Below are positions 9,891 to 56,794 of a stretch of DNA of 64,000 bases, in pieces. The stretch covers positions 2,335,572 through 2,399,571 of the forward strand of contig OZ245893.1 of assembly GCA_965229645.1 (NCBI GenBank), given 5' to 3'. The translations under genes and the position numbers were made by a program. The first letter of the stretch is position 1. Each line of letters starts with the position of its first letter. The notes under the pieces were generated by a model. That model made no database searches and was not told the origin of the DNA. It saw nothing but the letters and a program-made list of their open reading frames with translations. Source of the stretch: Alphaproteobacteria bacterium. GTDB lineage: Bacteria > Pseudomonadota > Alphaproteobacteria > UBA7985.

Positions 9891-10021
9891 TATACCAGCG
9901 GCGGCAGCTTTTGACTCGTAAATGCGTGGAGGCCTGAAATTTTTCGCCAATGATAAACTGCGTATCACGTCAATCACACAAAGAAATTGAATACGCGTCA
10001 ATTGATCCCGCCGCTGGTATA
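9891..10021. repeat. Short element bounded by perfect 14-bp inverted repeats TATACCAGCGGCGG/CCGCCGCTGGTATA (MITE termini) with an unrelated ~100-bp interior
   Basis: Termini match the MITE/IS630 ends. Flanking GAATTGAGAATGACCCTT resembles the MITE sub-terminal region. Confidence 0.55.
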
Positions 10022-15527: not shown

Positions 15528-17305
15528 GGATATCCATGCTCGATCAAACTTTGCCCACCTGGGATCTCAGCGATCTCTACGCGTCCCCTGAGGATCCCCG
15601 CATTGCTGCGGATTTGGCCGCCGTGGCCGACGAGGCGAAGGCGTTTGCCGCCGCCTACGAAACCAAGGTGGCGCAGCTTCCAGGGGCGGCCCTGGGCGCG
15701 GCCATCGCCGAACTCGAGCGCATGTCAGAAACGGCGGGCAGGATCAGCAGTTTTGCCTTCCTGCACTTTGCGGGCCAAGTGACCGACGCGGCGCGGGGCC
15801 GATTCCGCCAGTCGGTGAGCGAACAACTGACCGCCGCGCTCGAACCCACCCTGTTTTTCACGCTGGAGTTGCAGGCCATGGACGTGGCGGATCTGGATGC
15901 CAAACTGACAAACCCCGCCCTCGCCGCCTACGGGTCGTGGATTGACACCCAGGTTCGGCCCTTCGCTGCCTATCGCCTTTCTAAGGATTTGGAAACGTTC
16001 ATCGCCCAAGAAAGCAGCGTGACCCATGCAGGCTTCGTGCGGCTGTTCGACGAGACCATGGCGGCGCTGACGGTAAAGGTGCGCGGCCAGACTTTGAGCC
16101 AAGAACAGGCGTTGACCAATCTGCAATCCCCCGACCGGGCCCTGCGGCAGGAATCGGGCCAGGCCATGGCACGCGCCTTGGCCGAGCGGTCGAGCGTCCT
16201 CACCCTCATCACCAATACCCTTGCCAAGGCCAAGGAAATCGAAGATCGGACGCGCGGGCACCAAAGCCCCATGGCCGCCATGAATCTGCACAACGTGGTC
16301 GAGGACGAGGTCGTCGAGGCCTTGGTTAGCGCCGTCCAGCACGCCTACCCCAGGCTTGCCCACCGCTACTACACGATGAAAGCAGCGTGGCTGGGTTTTG
16401 ACAAGCTCAAGTATTGGGACCGCAACGCCCCCCTGCCTGGGACCGATTCCAGCGACATTCCCTACGCGGACGCGGTCGCCACCGTCCGCCAGGCCTACGC
16501 CGCGTTTTCTCCTGCTTTAGCGGAGGTCGCGACGCCGTTTTTTGATCGGAACTGGATCGACGTACCCGCCCGTCAGGGCAAGGCCCCCGGGGCCTTTGCG
16601 CACCCGACCGTGCCCTCGGCCCATCCCTACCTAATGCTGAACTATCAGGGTAAAGTCCGCGATGTCATGACCTTAGCCCATGAACTGGGCCACGGGGTCC
16701 ATCAGCGCTTGGCGGCCGATCAAGGGCTGTTCAAATCCTCCACGCCGCTGACCTTGGCGGAGACCGCGTCGGTCTTTGGTGAGATGCTCACGTTTCGGGC
16801 CTTGCTCGACCGCGATCAGCCCCCAGAACAGCGCAAACGGCTGCTCGCGGGCAAGGTCGAGGACATGCTGAATACGGTCGTGCGCCAGATCAGTTTTCAT
16901 GAGTTCGAGTGGGCCGTCCATGGTGCCCGCAAGCACGGCGAGTTGTCGAGCGAAGAGCTGAACCACCTTTGGCTCGATATCGCGAACAAATCCCTTGGGC
17001 CCGCCTTTGATTTGGACGCCGAGTACGGTGCCTTCTGGTCCTATGTGCCGCACTTCATCCATTCACCGTTCTATGTATATGCTTATGCCTTCGGGGATTG
17101 CTTGGTCAATGCCCTGTACCAAGAATACCAAGCAGCGCCCGAGGGTTTTGCTGAGAAGTATTTGGACCTGCTGCGCGCAGGGGGATCTAAGCGGCACGGC
17201 GAACTTCTGGCACCCTTTGGTCTGGACGCCAAGGACGCCAAATTTTGGGCCAAGGGGTTGAATTTTATCAGCGGCTTGATCGATGAATTGGAAGCTCTGG
17301 GCTAG
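15524..17305 (+). CDS. pepF: M3-family oligoendopeptidase F
   Basis: HELGHGVH zinc motif; alternative ATG start at 15536. Confidence 0.85.
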   Translation: MRISMLDQTLPTWDLSDLYASPEDPRIAADLAAVADEAKAFAAAYETKVAQLPGAALGAAIAELERMSETAGRISSFAFLHFAGQVTDAARGRFRQSVSEQLTAALEPTLFFTLELQAMDVADLDAKLTNPALAAYGSWIDTQVRPFAAYRLSKDLETFIAQESSVTHAGFVRLFDETMAALTVKVRGQTLSQEQALTNLQSPDRALRQESGQAMARALAERSSVLTLITNTLAKAKEIEDRTRGHQSPMAAMNLHNVVEDEVVEALVSAVQHAYPRLAHRYYTMKAAWLGFDKLKYWDRNAPLPGTDSSDIPYADAVATVRQAYAAFSPALAEVATPFFDRNWIDVPARQGKAPGAFAHPTVPSAHPYLMLNYQGKVRDVMTLAHELGHGVHQRLAADQGLFKSSTPLTLAETASVFGEMLTFRALLDRDQPPEQRKRLLAGKVEDMLNTVVRQISFHEFEWAVHGARKHGELSSEELNHLWLDIANKSLGPAFDLDAEYGAFWSYVPHFIHSPFYVYAYAFGDCLVNALYQEYQAAPEGFAEKYLDLLRAGGSKRHGELLAPFGLDAKDAKFWAKGLNFISGLIDELEALG

Positions 17306-17309
17306 CCTC

Positions 17310-17602
17310 ATACCAACGACGATTGAGGAGGGCTCTTATGATCGCCGGTATAAGGGCCGCGACTGCGGCCTCCCAAGCGGGCTCCAAGCCCGAAGGGCGC
17401 AGGGAACGCCCGCGCTCCAAACGCGCGGCCCCGAGTCAAACCAAGAAAGCGCCTTGGGGTATAAGCGTAGGCCCCGTCCTGCGGTCGGGCTGAGCGAGTT
17501 TAGCGAGCGAGTAGAGACCGCAACCCAAAAAGCCGAAATGCGAAGCATTTCTGCCGTGAGACACAAAACGGTCAAAAAAGTGTCAACTTTTTTGGCCGCT
17601 AG
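17310..17602 (+). mobile_element. MITE copy 4 (long form, modules A+B; 3' terminal repeat degenerate)
   Basis: ATACCAACGACG...GTGTCAACTTTTTTGGCCGCTAGC. The hairpin is GAAATGCGAAGCATTTC instead of GAAACGCGAAGCGTTTC, a compensatory double change that creates an ATG. Confidence 0.8.
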
Positions 17603-18479
17603 CCTCACCTCTCTTGTCGTTTCGCCCCTTGCGGGCGCGCAACCGCTCCGCTTTGCCACTTGGAACATCCAGAATTTTTGGCATGTGCCAGGGGAGTCCT
17701 TACGCGGGCCCTACCGGGGCCAAGATACGATCCGCACCGTTCAGGACTATGAGGCGCTGCACGCGCAGATCGCCGCGTTGGGCGCAGAAGTCTGGGCCTT
17801 GCAAGAAATAGGATCGCCCGCGGCCGCGCGGGCGCTGTTTCCCGCCCCCGATTGGCACCTGGTGTTTTCGCCTCGCTACGATCCCGAGGCCCCGCGCGAC
17901 ATCTATACCGCCATCGCCCTATCGACCGAGCGAATTCGGGTGCTGGACACGGGCCAGATCGACCTAGGTATCAATGGCCGCGACCGCGTGGGAACAACCG
18001 CGCTCATTGAGGTGGCCGATCAGCAGATCTGGATCGGCAGTCTTCACTTGAAAAGCGGATGCGCCTTTGACGATGTCACCGCATCCACTCGCCCTGCGTG
18101 CCCCGTTGTGGCGGCGCAGTTGGCGCGCCTGGAAAGCTGGATCGAAACCCATGCGGGGCAGGGGTTCATTCTTGGCGGCGACTTCAATCGCATTTTCATG
18201 GGCCGTCCCTACGGCGAGAATTCCCTTGATCCCACCTGGCAGTCCCTCAATGATTCACCGACCTATCCCTTGGCCCTATTCCCGTTCAGCCCGACGATCA
18301 CGTGCCACGCGTACCGTCCCAAAGACATGGACACATGGCCCATCGACTTCATCGTCGCCTCCCCTCCCTGGGGCACGCAAGCGCAGCCAGGCGTGCATGC
18401 GATCAACCAGGACAACCCGCGCCTCAGCGACCATTGCCCCGTGCTCGTGACCTTCGATCTGCCGCCAGGGGTTGATTAG
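17538..18479 (+). CDS. Endonuclease/exonuclease/phosphatase (EEP) family protein, secreted; start codon and signal peptide lie inside MITE copy 4
   Basis: The conserved EEP N-terminus (FATWNIQNF) begins right after the MITE. All in-frame ATG/GTG/TTG starts upstream of it (17538, 17556, 17580, 17592) lie within the MITE. Predicted signal peptide VKKVSTFLAASLTSLVVSPLAGA|QP. Confidence 0.65.
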   Translation: MRSISAVRHKTVKKVSTFLAASLTSLVVSPLAGAQPLRFATWNIQNFWHVPGESLRGPYRGQDTIRTVQDYEALHAQIAALGAEVWALQEIGSPAAARALFPAPDWHLVFSPRYDPEAPRDIYTAIALSTERIRVLDTGQIDLGINGRDRVGTTALIEVADQQIWIGSLHLKSGCAFDDVTASTRPACPVVAAQLARLESWIETHAGQGFILGGDFNRIFMGRPYGENSLDPTWQSLNDSPTYPLALFPFSPTITCHAYRPKDMDTWPIDFIVASPPWGTQAQPGVHAINQDNPRLSDHCPVLVTFDLPPGVD

Positions 18480-18493
18480 GGCGGCTGTTGTAA

Positions 18494-18688
18494 TACCAGC
18501 GGCGATTGAGAAGGACGCTTGAGTTCGCTGGTATAAGGGCCGCGACTGCGGCCCCCGTAGCGGCGCCGAGATGAGCTAAGAAAGCGCCTCGGGGTATAAG
18601 CGAAGGCCCCGTCGGAGGCGAAACGCGAAGCGTTTCTGCCGTGAGACATAAAACGGCTAAAAAAGTGTCAACTTTTTTCGCCGCTGGT
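18494..18688 (+). mobile_element. MITE copy 5 (short form), 3' terminus interrupted by IS4-family insertion
   Basis: TAATACCAGCGGCG...CTTTTTTCGCCGCTGGT then IS. The remaining terminus GCCGTTGGTAT reappears at 19913-19923. Confidence 0.8.
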
Positions 18689-19912
18689 CACAGTGCACGA
18701 CAGTAGTTGCTGAGGGAGCCGATATGTGCTTGCGGTGGGGGCTCTGCAACAGTGAATCGAGTATCCCCATGATCCGCAAAACCATCGACTCCCTCAGCGC
18801 CCAGCTATCGAACAGCGTGCCATTAAGCAAGAACCGTCTTGAAGTTTTGAGCCTAATGATTGTTGGAATGACCAGTTCTCGGACGCCGAATTTGAGTCAC
18901 ATAAGTTCGAAACTTCCCACGGCAGCGAAAATTCCGAGCACCTATCGCCGTATTCAACGTTTCTTCTCTGAAACAAACCTTGTTCAAGATTGGTCAGCAT
19001 TACTGATTGTACAGATGCTTAACCTTCCAAAGAGCTGGGACCTTTGTCTTGACAGAACCGACTGGAAGATAGGTTCCACACATATGAATATTCTGGTTCT
19101 CGCAGTTGTTACGCGGCGATATAGACTTCCGTTGATGTGGACCGTGTTGAATAAGCCAGGTTGCAGCAACACCGACCAACGCATTGATCTCATGAAGAGA
19201 TATTTGAACTTATTCGGAGCAAGCAGCATCAAGACCCTGTTGGCGGACCGTGAATTTATTGGCGCGGGGTGGTTGAGCTTTCTGGTTGAAAGTGGCGTCC
19301 AGACTGCGATCCGCCTCAGATCGAACCAGCGTGTTACTCTTGAGGATGGTACGCGTCAGAAATTGAGCGAAATAGTTGGGACCAAACGCACGCTTCAAAC
19401 ATTCAGAGGTTATCTTGAGAAAGACGAGCAAGGTAATCCCGTGTGGCTCAATTTTGCATCCAAATACATTGAGGGCAAAAAACCTAGAAGAACTAGGGAT
19501 CGGGAGGCCAAAAACAAATTCGGCGGAAAAGAACTTCTGATTGTCGCTACGAACGGAAATGCTGGTGATGCCATGAAAAGCTACAAACGTCGTTGGGCCA
19601 TTGAGTGCCTATTTGCAGATGCAAAAACAAAAGGCTTCAATCTAGAGGACACGCGCTTAACAATCACTAAGAAACTCGATCTACTTATGAGTATTCTAGC
19701 ATTGGCAATGACCTGGGCCACCAAAATTGGATCTGCAAAAATTGGAACAGCCCCGAGACCACGAGGTTCTCACGGACGATACAAAAAGTCTGTCTTCAGA
19801 ACCGGGTTTGACGAGCTTAGGCGGCTCATTCAGATGGAACCAGAAAAAGCATGCTGGTATTGGCGTAGGTCACGCCTGAGGACATCCTGAGAAGCTACTG
19901 TCGTGCACTGTG
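18689..19912 (+). mobile_element. IS4-family insertion sequence, 1224 bp, 18-bp terminal inverted repeats CACAGTGCACGACAGTAG
   Basis: Perfect inverted repeats at 18689-18706 and 19895-19912. GC is about 45% against about 65% for the host. Flanking 9-mers GCCGCTGGT/GCCGTTGGT form a possible imperfect target duplication. Confidence 0.8.
18724..19890 (+). CDS. IS4-family DDE transposase
   Basis: 388 aa; YKRRWAIECLFADAK fits the IS4 Y-x2-R-x3-E-x6-K signature. Confidence 0.75.
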   Translation: MCLRWGLCNSESSIPMIRKTIDSLSAQLSNSVPLSKNRLEVLSLMIVGMTSSRTPNLSHISSKLPTAAKIPSTYRRIQRFFSETNLVQDWSALLIVQMLNLPKSWDLCLDRTDWKIGSTHMNILVLAVVTRRYRLPLMWTVLNKPGCSNTDQRIDLMKRYLNLFGASSIKTLLADREFIGAGWLSFLVESGVQTAIRLRSNQRVTLEDGTRQKLSEIVGTKRTLQTFRGYLEKDEQGNPVWLNFASKYIEGKKPRRTRDREAKNKFGGKELLIVATNGNAGDAMKSYKRRWAIECLFADAKTKGFNLEDTRLTITKKLDLLMSILALAMTWATKIGSAKIGTAPRPRGSHGRYKKSVFRTGFDELRRLIQMEPEKACWYWRRSRLRTS

Positions 19913-19939
19913 GCCGTTGGTATAATACCAACGGAAAAA

Positions 19940-20482
19940 TTAAATGACCGTTGCCCAATCGCGTTTAGTCACCGACATTATGCGCCTTGGGTCATTGGCA
20001 AAGAAGTTCCATGCCTCAGCGCACTTTTGAAGAATTTCCTCGTATGTGTCGAATACCGATAGTGCGAGTTTGTTTGCTCGCAGATATTGCCAGACGTTTT
20101 CCATAGGGTTGAGCTCTGGCGAGTAGGGCGGCAATTTTAGGAGCGTGATATTCTGGGGTATCTCTAGTTTGTTAGCCAGATGCCAACCTGCGCAATCAAG
20201 CACAAGGATCGCATGCGCACCAGTAGCAACCGTTTTGGAGATTTCCGCTAAGTGCAAGTTCATCGCCTCGGTGTTCACATAAGGCAAGACCAGCCCCGCG
20301 GCGACACCCCGTTCGGGACAGGCAGCCCCGAAGATATAGCTCCATTGATAACGTGTATCACGCGGCGCACGCGGGCGAGTGCCCTGAGGCGCCCAAATAC
20401 GCGTCACTGTGCCCTTCTGACCTACGCGCGCCTCATCCTGAAACCAAACCTCAAGGGTTTTTTCGCGGGCGTAGTCAGGCAA
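19940..20482 (-). CDS. IS630-family transposase OrfB (DDE catalytic half), probably expressed as an OrfAB fusion by -1 frameshift
   Basis: WFQDEARVGQ (first D/E of the DDE triad) and PPYSPELNPMENVW. Slipping -1 on A AAA AAA reads ...LKKNFSKIIRDILPDYAREKT, joining the two ORFs. Confidence 0.75.
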   Translation of the reverse strand: MPDYAREKTLEVWFQDEARVGQKGTVTRIWAPQGTRPRAPRDTRYQWSYIFGAACPERGVAAGLVLPYVNTEAMNLHLAEISKTVATGAHAILVLDCAGWHLANKLEIPQNITLLKLPPYSPELNPMENVWQYLRANKLALSVFDTYEEILQKCAEAWNFFANDPRRIMSVTKRDWATVI

Positions 20483-20490
20483 AATATCCC

Positions 20491-21003
20491 TTATGATCTT
20501 TGAGAAGTTTTTTTTAGCGCCTCCTGGGCCTCTTTGTCGGTTTTGGGGTGTTCGGGCCGCACTGTCATACGCCGAAATCCCAGCTTGTCCAAGTAGTTCC
20601 CCACTGTGCGCTCACTCACCTCGATCTTCATTTCTTGTTTGATCCGATCTGCTAAGTCTTTGCGTCGCCAACGTACAACGCCATCGCGCTCAACGTCAGG
20701 ACCAGCCTTTACCCAAGCTGCAAGTTGGTCCATCTCAGATCCTTTGATGCGGGGCTTGGCTCCTGCGCCTTTGCGATCTTCCAAACCCCCAACGCCTTCG
20801 TCATTATAGCGATGGATCCAATCACGTAGCGACTGTCGGTCCATGCCGCTACTTTCTGCTGCGTACTTACGAGACGCACCTTCCAAAACAAGTGCTATGG
20901 AAAGCAATCGCCCGCCAACTCGACCGTTCTTCGCCTTGCGTGCCAGCGCCCGCAAATCATCGGCACTCTTGTCAAGACGGGTAATGGGAACCGCTGCACT
21001 CAT
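20491..21003 (-). CDS. IS630-family transposase OrfA (HTH/DNA-binding half)
   Basis: 170 aa. Ends ...EALKKTSQRS; an A8 run (minus strand, forward 20508-20515) lies 20 nt before the stop. Confidence 0.75.
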   Translation of the reverse strand: MSAAVPITRLDKSADDLRALARKAKNGRVGGRLLSIALVLEGASRKYAAESSGMDRQSLRDWIHRYNDEGVGGLEDRKGAGAKPRIKGSEMDQLAAWVKAGPDVERDGVVRWRRKDLADRIKQEMKIEVSERTVGNYLDKLGFRRMTVRPEHPKTDKEAQEALKKTSQRS

Positions 21004-21100
21004 ATCAAACTCCTATTCAATGATCCCTGCATCGAATCAGAATTGGACCACCTTGGGAATACCTAAAATTAAGAGTCGCTCATTCTTGCCGCTGGTATTA

Positions 21101-32758: not shown

Positions 32759-33268
32759 ATGAAATCACTGCGCTTATCCGTCGCTTCCTTCCTGGGCTTC
32801 GTGGCTCTGACGTCGGCAGGGCATGCCCAGTCGATCCGGCTGATCAATTCATTTTCTGACCCCATCCTCACCAAGGGGGCCGAACTTACCTTCATGCAGA
32901 CGCAGGCCCCAGCCGACGCGCCAATCGAACTGGTCATGTACACCGTGACGGTGTCAGAAACCCAAATCCAGTTTGAGTTGAAGGATCACTCTGCGGCCTC
33001 CGACCTCGTGTTTCCCGAGGGCCGCCAAGACATTTGGTATATTGCTCTCGATGGCGCCTCTTCCTACCAAGTCAGCCCCAAGAGCGACGCCAACTTCGTC
33101 GCCGAAGGACTCGCCGTTGCGGCAGGAACGGTGTTGGAGTTTGACGGTGCGTTTCGCGAAGGTCTCGAACTGGCCTATCCCCTGGATCAGGCAGGCATCC
33201 GCGTGACCCTGGGCGAAGGTACCGACCTGACACCCCTTGGCACGTCTTGGCGCATCGACTTTGAGTAA
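32759..33268 (+). CDS. Secreted hypothetical protein
   Basis: Signal peptide MKSLRLSVASFLGFVALTSAGHA; no recognisable family. Confidence 0.45.
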   Translation: MKSLRLSVASFLGFVALTSAGHAQSIRLINSFSDPILTKGAELTFMQTQAPADAPIELVMYTVTVSETQIQFELKDHSAASDLVFPEGRQDIWYIALDGASSYQVSPKSDANFVAEGLAVAAGTVLEFDGAFREGLELAYPLDQAGIRVTLGEGTDLTPLGTSWRIDFE

Positions 33269-45073: not shown

Positions 45074-45672
45074 AGGTCATTGGTTTGACGGGCGGCATCG
45101 CCATGGGCAAGTCCACGGCCGCCGCCATGTTGAGGGTCTTGCAGGTCCCCGTTCACGACGCCGATGCGGCGGTTCATGCCCTCTATGCGCGCGGCGGCGC
45201 GGGCGCCAAAGCGGTGGCGGAGTACTTCCCCGAAACGCTGGTCAACGGCGCGGTTGATCGGGGCAAGCTGCGGGACCAGGTCGTGGGTCAGCCCCAGGCG
45301 TTCGCGCGCCTCGAATCGCTGATCCATCCGCTGGTGCGCCAACATTCGGCGAACTGGTTGCGGAAGCACGCCCTGCGGCGCGCGCGCCTGGTGGTCCTCG
45401 ACATCCCGCTCTTGTTCGAAACCGAGCGTCATCGCGAGGTGCAGGAAATCTGGGTCGTGACCTGCCCCGCCTTCGTGCAACGCCAGCGCGCCCTGGCGCG
45501 ACCGGGCATGGACGCGGCAAAGCTCGACGCAATTTTGGCGCGCCAAACCTCGCAAGCGCGGCGCCTGCGCGCCGCGCACCGCATTTTTCCAACGGGCAAC
45601 GGCAAGCCTGCCCTGTTTCGGGCCCTGCGCCGCGCCCTCGAACGATCTTATACCAGCGGCGATTGCAACTGA
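45070..45672 (+). CDS. coaE: Dephospho-CoA kinase; last 8 codons and stop lie in MITE copy 10
   Basis: MKVIGLTGGIAMGKST (P-loop). C-terminus ...ERSYTSGDCN* is encoded by CTTATACCAGCGGCGATTGCAACTGA. Confidence 0.85.
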   Translation: MKVIGLTGGIAMGKSTAAAMLRVLQVPVHDADAAVHALYARGGAGAKAVAEYFPETLVNGAVDRGKLRDQVVGQPQAFARLESLIHPLVRQHSANWLRKHALRRARLVVLDIPLLFETERHREVQEIWVVTCPAFVQRQRALARPGMDAAKLDAILARQTSQARRLRAAHRIFPTGNGKPALFRALRRALERSYTSGDCN

Positions 45673-55207: not shown

Positions 55208-56406
55208 TCGCATCGTTTTTGGGCAAGCGTGCCTTCGCCGCCATCCTCCGCAGTCTTGAGGGCCGCATCGACCAGGGCGCGCTCACTTTCATTTTGCCCG
55301 ACGGCGAGCAACACGTCGTGGCGGGGCCAAATCCTGGTCCCCAGGCGCAACTCCAGATTCATACCTACGGCTTTATGCGCCGCATTCTGCGGTTTGGGTC
55401 GCTGGGGTTTGCCGAGGCCTACATGGCCGAGGAGTGTAGCAGCCCCGATATGCGCGCGGTGATGGATTTTGCCGTCGCCAACGCCAAGTGGTTCGACTCC
55501 GACGCGTTCATGAGCCGCGGCCTCGCCAACCTCATCACCCGCTGGCGGCACAGCCGCCGCGACAATAGCCGCGTCGGGTCGCGCAAGAATATCGCTTACC
55601 ACTACGACCTGGGCAATGACTTCTATGCCCTTTGGCTGGATCCGTCCATGACGTACTCCAGTGCTGTTTTTGCCGACGGGGTCAATTCCTTGGAGGTCGC
55701 GCAGCGGGAAAAGTACGACCGCCTGGCCCAGCTCGTCGATCTCAAGCCAGGGGCGCGGGTCTTAGAGATTGGGTGCGGCTGGGGCGGCTTTGCCGAATTT
55801 GCCGCCAGGGAGTACGGCGCGGAGGTGACGGGCCTGACCATCAGTCAGGAACAGCTCGAGTACGCCAAGGCGCGGATTGCGCGCGCGGGCCTGACCGCTA
55901 AGGTCGATCTGCAGTTTTGCGACTACCGCGAACATGCGGGGAAAAACTACGACGCTCTGGTCTCGATTGAAATGTTCGAGGCGGTGGGCGAGCGGCACTG
56001 GCGAACCTTTTTTGATCGGGTTCAGGCCTTGTTGCGCCCAGGCGGCAAGGCGGGCCTGCAGGTCATTACCATCGCAGAGCCGTTTTTCCACGCCTACCGC
56101 GCCAGCCCAGACTTTATCCAGAAGTACATTTTCCCAGGGGGCATGTTGCCAACGCCCGAGCATTTGGACGCCTTAGCGGGGCAGGTGAACCTGACGCGCG
56201 AGACTTCGACGGGGTACGGGACCCACTACGCCCGCACCCTCGACACCTGGCTCGCCAACTTCCGCCAGCACTGGGACCAGATTAGCGCCATGGGATTCGA
56301 TGAACGGTTTCGGCGCATGTGGGAGTACTATCTGCACTATTGCTCTGCAGGGTTCACCGACGGTCGCTTGGACGTAAAGCAGATCGGTCTGCGCAAGGGT
56401 GCCTAA
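55204..56406 (+). CDS. cfa: Cyclopropane-fatty-acyl-phospholipid synthase family SAM-dependent methyltransferase
   Basis: VLEIGCGWGG SAM motif; HYDLGNDFY. Confidence 0.85.
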   Translation: MIASFLGKRAFAAILRSLEGRIDQGALTFILPDGEQHVVAGPNPGPQAQLQIHTYGFMRRILRFGSLGFAEAYMAEECSSPDMRAVMDFAVANAKWFDSDAFMSRGLANLITRWRHSRRDNSRVGSRKNIAYHYDLGNDFYALWLDPSMTYSSAVFADGVNSLEVAQREKYDRLAQLVDLKPGARVLEIGCGWGGFAEFAAREYGAEVTGLTISQEQLEYAKARIARAGLTAKVDLQFCDYREHAGKNYDALVSIEMFEAVGERHWRTFFDRVQALLRPGGKAGLQVITIAEPFFHAYRASPDFIQKYIFPGGMLPTPEHLDALAGQVNLTRETSTGYGTHYARTLDTWLANFRQHWDQISAMGFDERFRRMWEYYLHYCSAGFTDGRLDVKQIGLRKGA

Positions 56407-56773
56407 GGCCAGCGGCAACTGAGGATGACTCTTATGTTCGCTGGTATAAGGGCTGCGACTGCGGTCCCCCAAAGCGGGCTCCAAGCCTGAAGGGCGCAGG
56501 GAACGCCCGTAATCCAAACGCGCGGCCCCGAGAATCGCGGACACGCGCCTCGGGGTATAAGCCAAGGCCCCGTCCAGCGGTCGGGCTGAGCGAGCTTAGC
56601 GAGCGAGTAGAGACCGCAACTAAAAGGTCGGGCTGAGCGAGCTTAGCGAGCGAGTAGAGACCGCAACTAAAAGGTCGGGCTGAGCGAGCTTAGCGAGCGA
56701 GGTGAGACCGCAACCCATAAAGCCGAAACGCGAAGCGTTTCTGCCGCGAGACACCAAACGGACATAAAAAAGG
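56407..56773 (+). mobile_element. MITE copy 11 (long form; module B expanded to 3 tandem 47-bp units)
   Basis: GGCCAGCGGCAACTGAGGATGACTCTTATGTTCGCTGGTATAAGG...; no clear 3' terminal repeat. Confidence 0.75.
56579..56719 (+). repeat. Tandem repeat 3 x 47 bp (GGTCGGGCTGAGCGAGCTTAGCGAGCGAGTAGAGACCGCAACTAAAA)
   Basis: Units at 56579, 56626, 56673; the third unit diverges at its 3' end. Confidence 0.85.
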
Positions 56774-56794
56774 CGTCGTTGATAACCGTTTGTG

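Follow-up and report, generated by a model that had tools for sequence, protein, structure and literature searches.

Can a mobile repeat provide a bacterial gene with both its start codon and its export signal, or does it settle in a region which already holds them? This question is raised by a gene of the endonuclease/exonuclease/phosphatase (EEP) family, found in a 64,000-nucleotide stretch of DNA from an uncultured alphaproteobacterium (GenBank assembly GCA_965229645.1, contig OZ245893.1, positions 2,335,572 to 2,399,571 of the forward strand; this whole stretch is called here the window). A sequence-only reading of the locus had proposed that a miniature transposable element with inverted repeats (MITE), lying under the 5′-end of the gene, donated its ATG and its signal peptide. 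A multi-copy MITE does occupy part of the 5′ coding region, where it contributes codons to the open reading frame (ORF), but it does not appear to be the source of the gene start: comparison with MITE-free orthologs indicates that the element landed inside the pre-existing signal-peptide coding region of a gene for a conserved, exported EEP enzyme, and that it created neither the start nor the signal peptide. The proposal fails because its premise, i.e., that every in-frame initiator lies within the element, is false: ATG 17283 is located upstream of the MITE, in frame and with no intervening stop.

The ORF extends from 17283 to 18479 and encodes 398 amino acids, with no stop through the whole MITE, both in the window strain and in a sister strain (L002). 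Its first start codon (ATG 17283–17285, + strand) overlaps by 23 nt the 3′-end of a gene for an M3-family oligoendopeptidase (pepF-like, 15536–17305, + strand; Pfam PF01432/PF08439; NCBIfam TIGR02290, 592.7 bits, above cut-off). The MITE copy (17311–17597, + strand; 287 bp, IS630-related, with several hairpins) forms, in frame, residues 10–105 of the protein. The in-frame starts following ATG 17283 are TTG 17454, ATG 17538, GTG 17556, GTG 17580 and TTG 17592, all of them inside the MITE, and none is found between the MITE and the EEP domain. The conserved beginning of this domain had been placed 35 bp past the end of the element; its R codon, at 17649, is instead 49–52 bp past the end of the homology (17597–17600). 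The 398-aa ORF is also that of the public annotation, which reflects the choice of a gene caller and is not evidence for the start; a third member (42 aa) of the sequence cluster containing this ORF was discarded as unrelated noise.

When the MITE and one copy of the repeat bordering it were excised in silico, a 299-aa protein was obtained, starting MNWKLWASLTSLVVSPLAGAQP / MNWKLWASLTSLVVSPLAGAQPLRFATWN. A search with this reconstruction recovered P0001 (398 aa, 99% identical), the MITE-bearing version of this gene from the sister strain, and P0002, which is MITE-free, has 299 aa and is 88% identical over 100% of the query. The N-terminus of P0002 (MNWKLWASLASLIISPLASA|QP / MNWKLWASLASLIISPLASAQPLRFATWN, with ASLASLIISPLASA|QP as core) is the same as that of the excised reconstruction, and orthologs at 47–51% identity open with M[NS]WK[LI]W.S, after which come hydrophobic residues and an A-x-A|[QE] site. 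Loci with the pyrF-pepF-EEP gene order are L001 (the locus of P0002), L058 and L059, while L001, L058 and L056 share the 23-nt overlap between EEP start and pepF end, together with the pepF-like gene and its identical gene end; in the MITE-free ortholog of L001 no other in-frame start exists upstream of the hydrophobic core. By these comparisons ATG 17283 is the native EEP start, and, because the excised reconstruction and the MITE-free orthologs share their N-terminus, the hydrophobic core and the AGA|QP site are native as well. The signal peptide ascribed to the MITE is contradicted by SLTSLVVSPLAGA|QP, which is native and kept in the MITE-free orthologs, and the start codon ascribed to it by the native ATG 17283, which is open and conserved, while ATG 17538 lacks a Shine-Dalgarno sequence and lies in a stem. 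Orthologs with a different native N-terminus, which had been named as an outcome contrary to the proposal, were found; the disrupted pseudogene that was to go with them was not borne out.

Three orthologs (P0005, P0011 and P0013) have 20–40 extra residues at the position of the MITE insertion; since N-terminal extensions thus occur in natural orthologs, the region tolerates length variation. At the locus of P0005 (L056, 361–445), a hairpin-rich segment of ~80 bp follows immediately the CTAG of pepF, lengthening the N-terminus by ~26 residues; this segment may be an independent insertion at the same hotspot.

The empty site is provided by L001, which belongs to the metagenome-assembled genome (MAG) CBDDHH01 and reads TTGGGCTAGCCTCGCCTCC / GAAGCTTTGGGCTAGCCTCGCCTCC, with no MITE and with the 10-mer GCTAGCCTCA in single copy. 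In the window this 10-mer occurs only twice, exactly bordering the MITE: the left copy (17301–17310, + strand), representing the duplicated target, includes the CTAG of the pepF stop, and the right copy (17598–17607, + strand) codes for a duplicated A-S-L. The spacing between the two copies is 297 bp, i.e., 99 codons with 0 stops, corresponding to the MITE plus the 10-bp duplication. The sister strain L002, 99.5% identical to the window across 12.6 kb, has its site filled in the same way and also carries the ATG variant, with the MITE lying in both strains between GCTAGCCTC[A/G] and GCTAGCCTCA. The base preceding TACC, at 17310, is A in the window, where the repeat is perfect (10/10), and G in L002 and at the empty site of L001; window and L002 also differ at 17347, and both changes are non-synonymous in the read-through frame. 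The insertion point is 5 nt past the pepF-like stop codon (TAG, 17303–17305, + strand), which falls within the duplicated target. The insertion altered neither the native ATG 17283 and the sequence context upstream of it nor the pepF stop.

An IS630-type event would not be expected to leave the junctions seen in this copy, which may go back to a single aberrant event or to later changes that restored the frame. With a canonical TA insertion into CTAG the gain would be 292 bp, shifting the EEP frame and converting the pepF stop from TAG to TAC, whereas the observed 297 bp keeps both genes. This site, the only empty/filled pair, displays a 7–10-bp duplication and not a TA; the other MITE copies, known from filled sites alone, show TA only inside ATACC.../...GGTAT, with no long flanking repeat. 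In addition, the left inverted repeat of the copy carries 2 substitutions and its right one is truncated, the right end reading ...TTTTTTGGCC(GCT) as compared to ...GGCCGCTGGTAT in the others. No other empty/filled pair was found between the window and the related MAG, this site being the only collinear one; at 45650 a MITE copy is present in both genomes, but the two copies point in opposite directions and their flanks have diverged. Neither the right junction specific to the insertion nor the ATG-variant hairpin was hit in metagenome scans (0 matches), hence no further strains or intermediate alleles.

How does the frame remain open across the element? The variable loop of this copy reads ...AACCAAGAAAGCGC, whereas the other 32 copies of this loop type have GCTAAG (31) or GCTATG (1). 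As indicated by the loop survey and a frame check, a T at 17442 would produce an in-frame TAA, as in 31 of the 32 sister copies, while a CAA codon (17442–17444, + strand; T→C at 17442) is present here. The copy thus lacks the only stop expected in the frame and has a length that keeps the frame; both properties are needed for a start at 17283, and neither is needed for a start at 17538. Only 3 of the 10 window copies lack stops in the corresponding frame. Moreover, of 66 MITE copies, this one alone lies within a gene that continues as coding sequence on either side of it. The open frame and the length favour a selection filter for read-through, acting at insertion or after, and a chance origin of these properties is considered very unlikely. 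A protein search with the 99-aa MITE-encoded peptide gave no match, and did not recover the host gene itself either.

An open frame could also be found in a gene that the insertion inactivated, i.e., one with a split signal peptide and an enzyme no longer exported or useful, where the ORF is still open only as the event is recent and the frame luckily free of stops. In fact, 99 residues, most of them polar or charged, stand between the n-region and the hydrophobic core, 3 of the 10 MITE copies in the window are stop-free by chance in the corresponding frame, the 3′ module of the copy is near the consensus, as would be compatible with a young insertion, and the differences between window strain and L002 comprise 2 within the MITE, both non-synonymous, and 3 non-synonymous plus 3 synonymous in the mature part. 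This explanation is countered by the in-frame length and the open ORF, with a stop codon specifically absent, by the 13 substitutions at 240 conserved positions, suggesting that the insertion is not brand new, and by the intact gene kept in both sequenced strains. The state of the enzyme argues in the same direction. The mature EEP domain (17640–18479, + strand) is intact (PF03372, 32.8 bits vs. a cut-off of 24.5) and opens with the conserved LRFATWNI(Q/E)NFWHV; all the residues invariant across 23 family members, including the catalytic ones, are kept, with WNI, LQE, GDFNR and SDH conserved. The ratio of non-synonymous to synonymous rates (dN/dS) versus L001 is 0.12, with a dS of 0.53, and outgroup polarisation revealed no excess of derived amino-acid changes (8 in the MITE-bearing vs. 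8 in the MITE-free lineage). AlphaFold confidence (pLDDT) is mostly >85 from about residue 121 on, with a few blocks at 69–80, and <50 for residues 9–72; Foldseek retrieved Tdp2, nocturnin and DNase I (E ~1e-11), which are generic EEP-fold matches only, and a sequence search of the PDB found no informative relative of the enzyme. The gene therefore appears to be without signs of decay, as judged from these comparisons, and its inactivation is considered quite unlikely.

The ATG at 17538, on which the original proposal was built, is real. It lies at 17538–17540, in frame, within a hairpin reading GAAATGC-GAA-GCATTTC (17535–17551, + strand), where C→T at 17539 is paired with G→A at 17547. This form is unique among the 74 copies of the non-redundant hairpin set (11 from the window and 63 from the related MAG): the other 10 window copies read GAAACGC-GAA-GCGTTTC, and no single-arm intermediate at the T/A pair occurs in the set. 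As for its description as a compensatory double mutation, both arms have changed and the stem is kept, but one event does not tell compensation from a mutational mechanism. The 13 substitutions of the copy, counted at the 240 positions where the family consensus is ≥80%, struck stems on one side only 7 times, and 17539/17547 (C-G → T-A) is the sole doubly substituted pair of 73 conserved pairs; random placement of 13 substitutions yielded at least one compensated pair in ~9% of trials (~0.09). In the 64-nt 3′ module the T/A pair is the only departure from consensus, while no other 5′ module in the window has diverged as far as that of this copy (11/64 positions changed).

From this pattern, the paired change was probably concerted. 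The same C→T transition occurred twice, each time within ACGC, once on either strand of a perfect palindrome, and quasi-palindrome correction, by template switching, is an established mutational mechanism. The pair may then be an artefact of the palindrome with no bearing on translation, due to template switching or to parallel deamination at ACGC, which is regarded as a serious possibility, somewhat short of even. The 7 uncompensated one-sided stem changes, implying no general structure-preserving selection on the copy, agree with it; on the other hand, a single event cannot separate artefact from selection, and this explanation fits all the start models, competing only with the word “compensatory”.

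Alternatively, the insertion crippled the native signal peptide, possibly first bringing in an in-frame TAA, and a rescue start then arose in the MITE, with C→T at 17539 making the ATG and G→A at 17547 restoring the stem. The product would be a 313-aa precursor with the hybrid signal peptide MRSISAVRHKTVKKVSTFLA-ASLTSLVVSPLAGA|QP, in which the n-region and the first hydrophobic residues derive from the MITE, whereas the remaining core and the cleavage site are native. The uniqueness of the T/A pair, its being the only change in the 3′ module and its chance probability of 0.09 or lower are consistent with this order of events; furthermore, the C→U step is near neutral for the RNA stem, which a G·U pair holds at −6.4 kcal/mol (vs. 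−6.8 kcal/mol for the final form), while the reverse order breaks it (−2.4 kcal/mol). The leader would have 34 residues, with 5 K/R, no acidic residues and a core more hydrophobic than the native one (2.17 vs. 1.60). A rescue of this kind is nevertheless regarded as unlikely. ATG 17538 shows no pairing with the anti-Shine-Dalgarno sequence (+0.6 kcal/mol; −2.9 for GTG 17580) and is sequestered in a 7-bp stem, both in the whole-element fold and in isolation (−6.8 kcal/mol vs. −8.2 for the consensus), and no promoter-like site was found in 17000–17800. The native start and its context are unchanged, so that ribosomes from 17283 should read on; the ORF upstream of 17538 has been kept open, including the TAA→CAA change, which a start at 17538 does not require; the consensus MITE already has the in-frame GTG 17556, GTG 17580 and TTG 17592, which makes a new ATG unnecessary; the core and the cleavage site are native regardless; and no gene caller or database record uses this start. 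The specific stepwise form, where the paired substitution made ATG 17538 and MITE codons supply both the start and the basic n-region, is held to be a shade less probable still. It could accompany TAA→CAA and the unusual duplication of 10 bp, by which the two overlapping genes stayed in frame, and, if true, it would document how MITE sequence was recruited, step by step, into an export signal of a bacterium.

With moderate confidence, the preferred reading is that initiation still occurs at the native ATG 17283, probably coupled to pepF, and that translation proceeds through the MITE. As the native start context is unchanged, ribosomes from 17283 would read through, unwinding the stem. Several points weigh against this. 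A stop-free frame is not rare in the MITE family (the 3 of 10 copies mentioned above), and the window/L002 differences in the mature part are too few to demonstrate constraint since the insertion. The paired substitution, which places an in-frame ATG shortly ahead of a basic stretch and the hydrophobic core, is somewhat improbable by chance, at 0.09 over the whole element, and has the look that a rescue start would have. An N-terminal extension of ~100 residues ahead of a signal sequence is unusual and may impair export. Finally, anti-Shine-Dalgarno pairing at ATG 17283 is poor (−1.7 kcal/mol, as compared to a median of −3.9 kcal/mol for ATG-started ORFs of ≥250 aa in the window), and because of this the use of ATG 17283 rests on ortholog conservation and on the presumed coupling to pepF.

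Initiation at 17283 would give a precursor of 398 aa, with MNWKLWASL parted from the hydrophobic core by an insert of 99 residues that is basic and disordered. The insert contains 18 K/R vs. 10 D/E and ends with RHKTVKK-VSTFLA, followed by the duplicated ASL; the earlier observation that the MITE 3′-end reads KKVSTFLAA in the frame of the gene is correct. This end would rebuild a positive flank and a slightly longer hydrophobic stretch, the hydrophobic maximum rising from 1.60 in the native form to 2.17 with the insert (Kyte-Doolittle, 11-residue window). The native core and c-region (ASLTSLVVSPLAGA, 17598–17639, + strand) are assigned by ortholog conservation and a hydropathy heuristic, and the predicted signal peptidase I site, AGA|QP, falls between 17639 and 17640 (+ strand). 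By the hydropathy heuristic only, K4, the core LWASLTSLVVSPL and the AGA|QP site were assigned to the native form, and 5 K/R and the core VSTFLAASLTSLVVSPL to the form from ATG 17538. The now-internal signal is inferred to still insert, in the N-in/C-out orientation, and to be cleaved at AGA|QP, releasing the same mature enzyme for either start; the enzyme in its mature form is probably unchanged. The most that the MITE could give is a positive n-region and six hydrophobic residues, and this only with a start at ATG 17538. The insert has neither a Tat signal nor a lipobox motif, and both options were therefore rejected. The insertion would have persisted by being in frame and stop-free by luck, or by being made so by T→C at 17442, and ATG 17538 would be a by-product of the paired hairpin substitution and not the main start.

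What kind of element is the repeat? A 29-nt probe for the family hairpin gave 11 matches in the window vs. 0 expected by chance, and the 5′ module of the MITE is present in 10 copies. At least 53 further MITE stretches emerged from a genome-collection scan, nearly all from the alphaproteobacterial MAG CBDDHH01. The full copies are 196–390 bp long, GC-rich, modular and multi-hairpin, with optional internal hairpin modules; most of them display 12-bp terminal inverted repeats (ATACCAGCGGCG / CGCCGCTGGTAT), with a right-end consensus CGCCG[CT]TGGTAT. The element is small and without a transposase gene, and 32 of 66 copies have stops in all six frames. Rfam gave no match, neither for the whole window at the gathering threshold nor for 17200–17700 at E ≤ 1. 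An IS630-family insertion sequence (IS), located at 19925–21098 (− strand) and containing a DDE_3 domain, has the ends ATACCAGCGGCAAGAATGAGCGACTC and ATACCAACGGAAAAAT, to be compared with ATACCAGCGGCG.TTGA.AATGACTC and ATACCAACGGCGAAAAAA of the MITE: the likeness at both ends reaches beyond the terminal inverted repeats. Because the ends of this IS match both ends of the repeat past the inverted repeats, the designation as a MITE is justified, and the IS is likely its autonomous partner. The transposase is split across two frames, by a frameshift or a programmed shift. Collinearity with the 99.5%-identical L002 stops exactly at the first base of this IS, which would therefore be a recent insertion or a rearrangement breakpoint.

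Other features of the window concern this family or its relatives. A 129-bp element at 9892–10020 has perfect 12-bp inverted repeats (ATACCAGCGGCG / CGCCGCTGGTAT) but differs in its interior, which is unrelated and richer in AT; it represents a second type of MITE, possibly served by the same transposase. The MITE copy at 56405–56790 contains a tandem triplication of the 47-bp internal module GGTCGGGCTGAGCGAGCTTAGCGAGCGAGTAGAGACCGCAACTAAAA (56580–56720). An IS4-family IS at 18689–19910, with 18-bp inverted repeats CACAGTGCACGACAGTAG and an ORF at 18724–19890 carrying a DDE_Tnp_1 domain (region 18493–19923), sits in the right inverted repeat of a MITE copy starting at 18493, and its flanks, GCCGCTGGT and GCCGTTGGT, represent a 9-bp duplication with one mismatch. 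MITE 5′-ends at 33268, 56405, 40367, 45650, 1645 and 43468 lie tight against gene ends: several upstream ORFs terminate at the first base of the MITE or 2–23 nt inside it, and often a TAA or TGA is formed with the ATA of the element. The TA of stop codons may be a preferred landing site for a TA-targeting element in this GC-rich genome, and the hit at the pepF stop would be explained as well. The family hairpin (17535–17551 and equivalents), which on the minus strand is followed by GGCTTTTTGG, scores terminator-like there, and MITE copies in the minus orientation might serve as weak terminators; an intrinsic terminator on the plus strand inside the MITE was rejected, as the scan found none.

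In-frame fusions of MITEs with host ORFs are well described in bacteria, foremost for the Rickettsia palindromic elements (RPEs), and also for ERIC and the pneumococcal BOX (reviewed in PMC10969869) and for Coxiella QMITE1/2 (PMC5896051). The EEP locus shares with RPEs, ERIC and QMITEs a palindromic, multi-copy, non-autonomous repeat lying in a protein gene, with the ORF kept open and the host gene intact. Unlike them, it involves an unrelated element family, with an IS630-family partner and terminal inverted repeats, and the insertion, known from sequence alone, is in a signal-peptide region at a two-gene overlap and not in the mature protein or at the C-terminus. RUP of Streptococcus pneumoniae is an IS630-related MITE, mobilised by IS630-Spn1 and having TA as target. 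Similarly, the short terminal inverted repeats of the present family are identical with the ends of an IS630-family IS of its genome, TA lies at both element ends and many copies occupy short intergenic gaps; however, the element is larger (196–390 bp), GC-rich and modular, with a tandemly repeated 47-bp module, and, in place of a plain TA duplication, the studied copy is flanked by a 10-bp repeat and truncated at its right end. With mobile elements that donate expression signals, such as the outward promoters and hybrid starts of ISs and MITEs, the locus has in common an in-frame ATG and n-region-like codons; it differs in having kept its native start, in frame, and its native signal core, and neither a promoter nor a Shine-Dalgarno sequence was detected in the element. 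A literature search with sequence strings of the repeat yielded nothing relevant. The case represents an ordinary in-frame intragenic MITE insertion, of a kind already known in bacteria. The MITE family is an undescribed IS630-related family of this uncultured alphaproteobacterium, and the particular feature of the case is the insertion inside the signal-peptide coding region at a two-gene overlap.

For annotation, the ORF is of 398 aa, with the mature enzyme probably unchanged. The locus is also a simple experimental system, combining three possible starts with a substitution that removes a stop and a paired change in a hairpin, where it can be asked how long an N-terminal extension a bacterial signal sequence tolerates and whether element-borne ATGs are used. 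The comparison of empty and filled sites makes it a clear example of in-frame MITE insertion at a two-gene overlap, where the repeat was tolerated in an existing signal-peptide region, rather than donating a start and an export signal; insertions of such elements may thus be accommodated in signal-peptide regions much as they are at protein termini.

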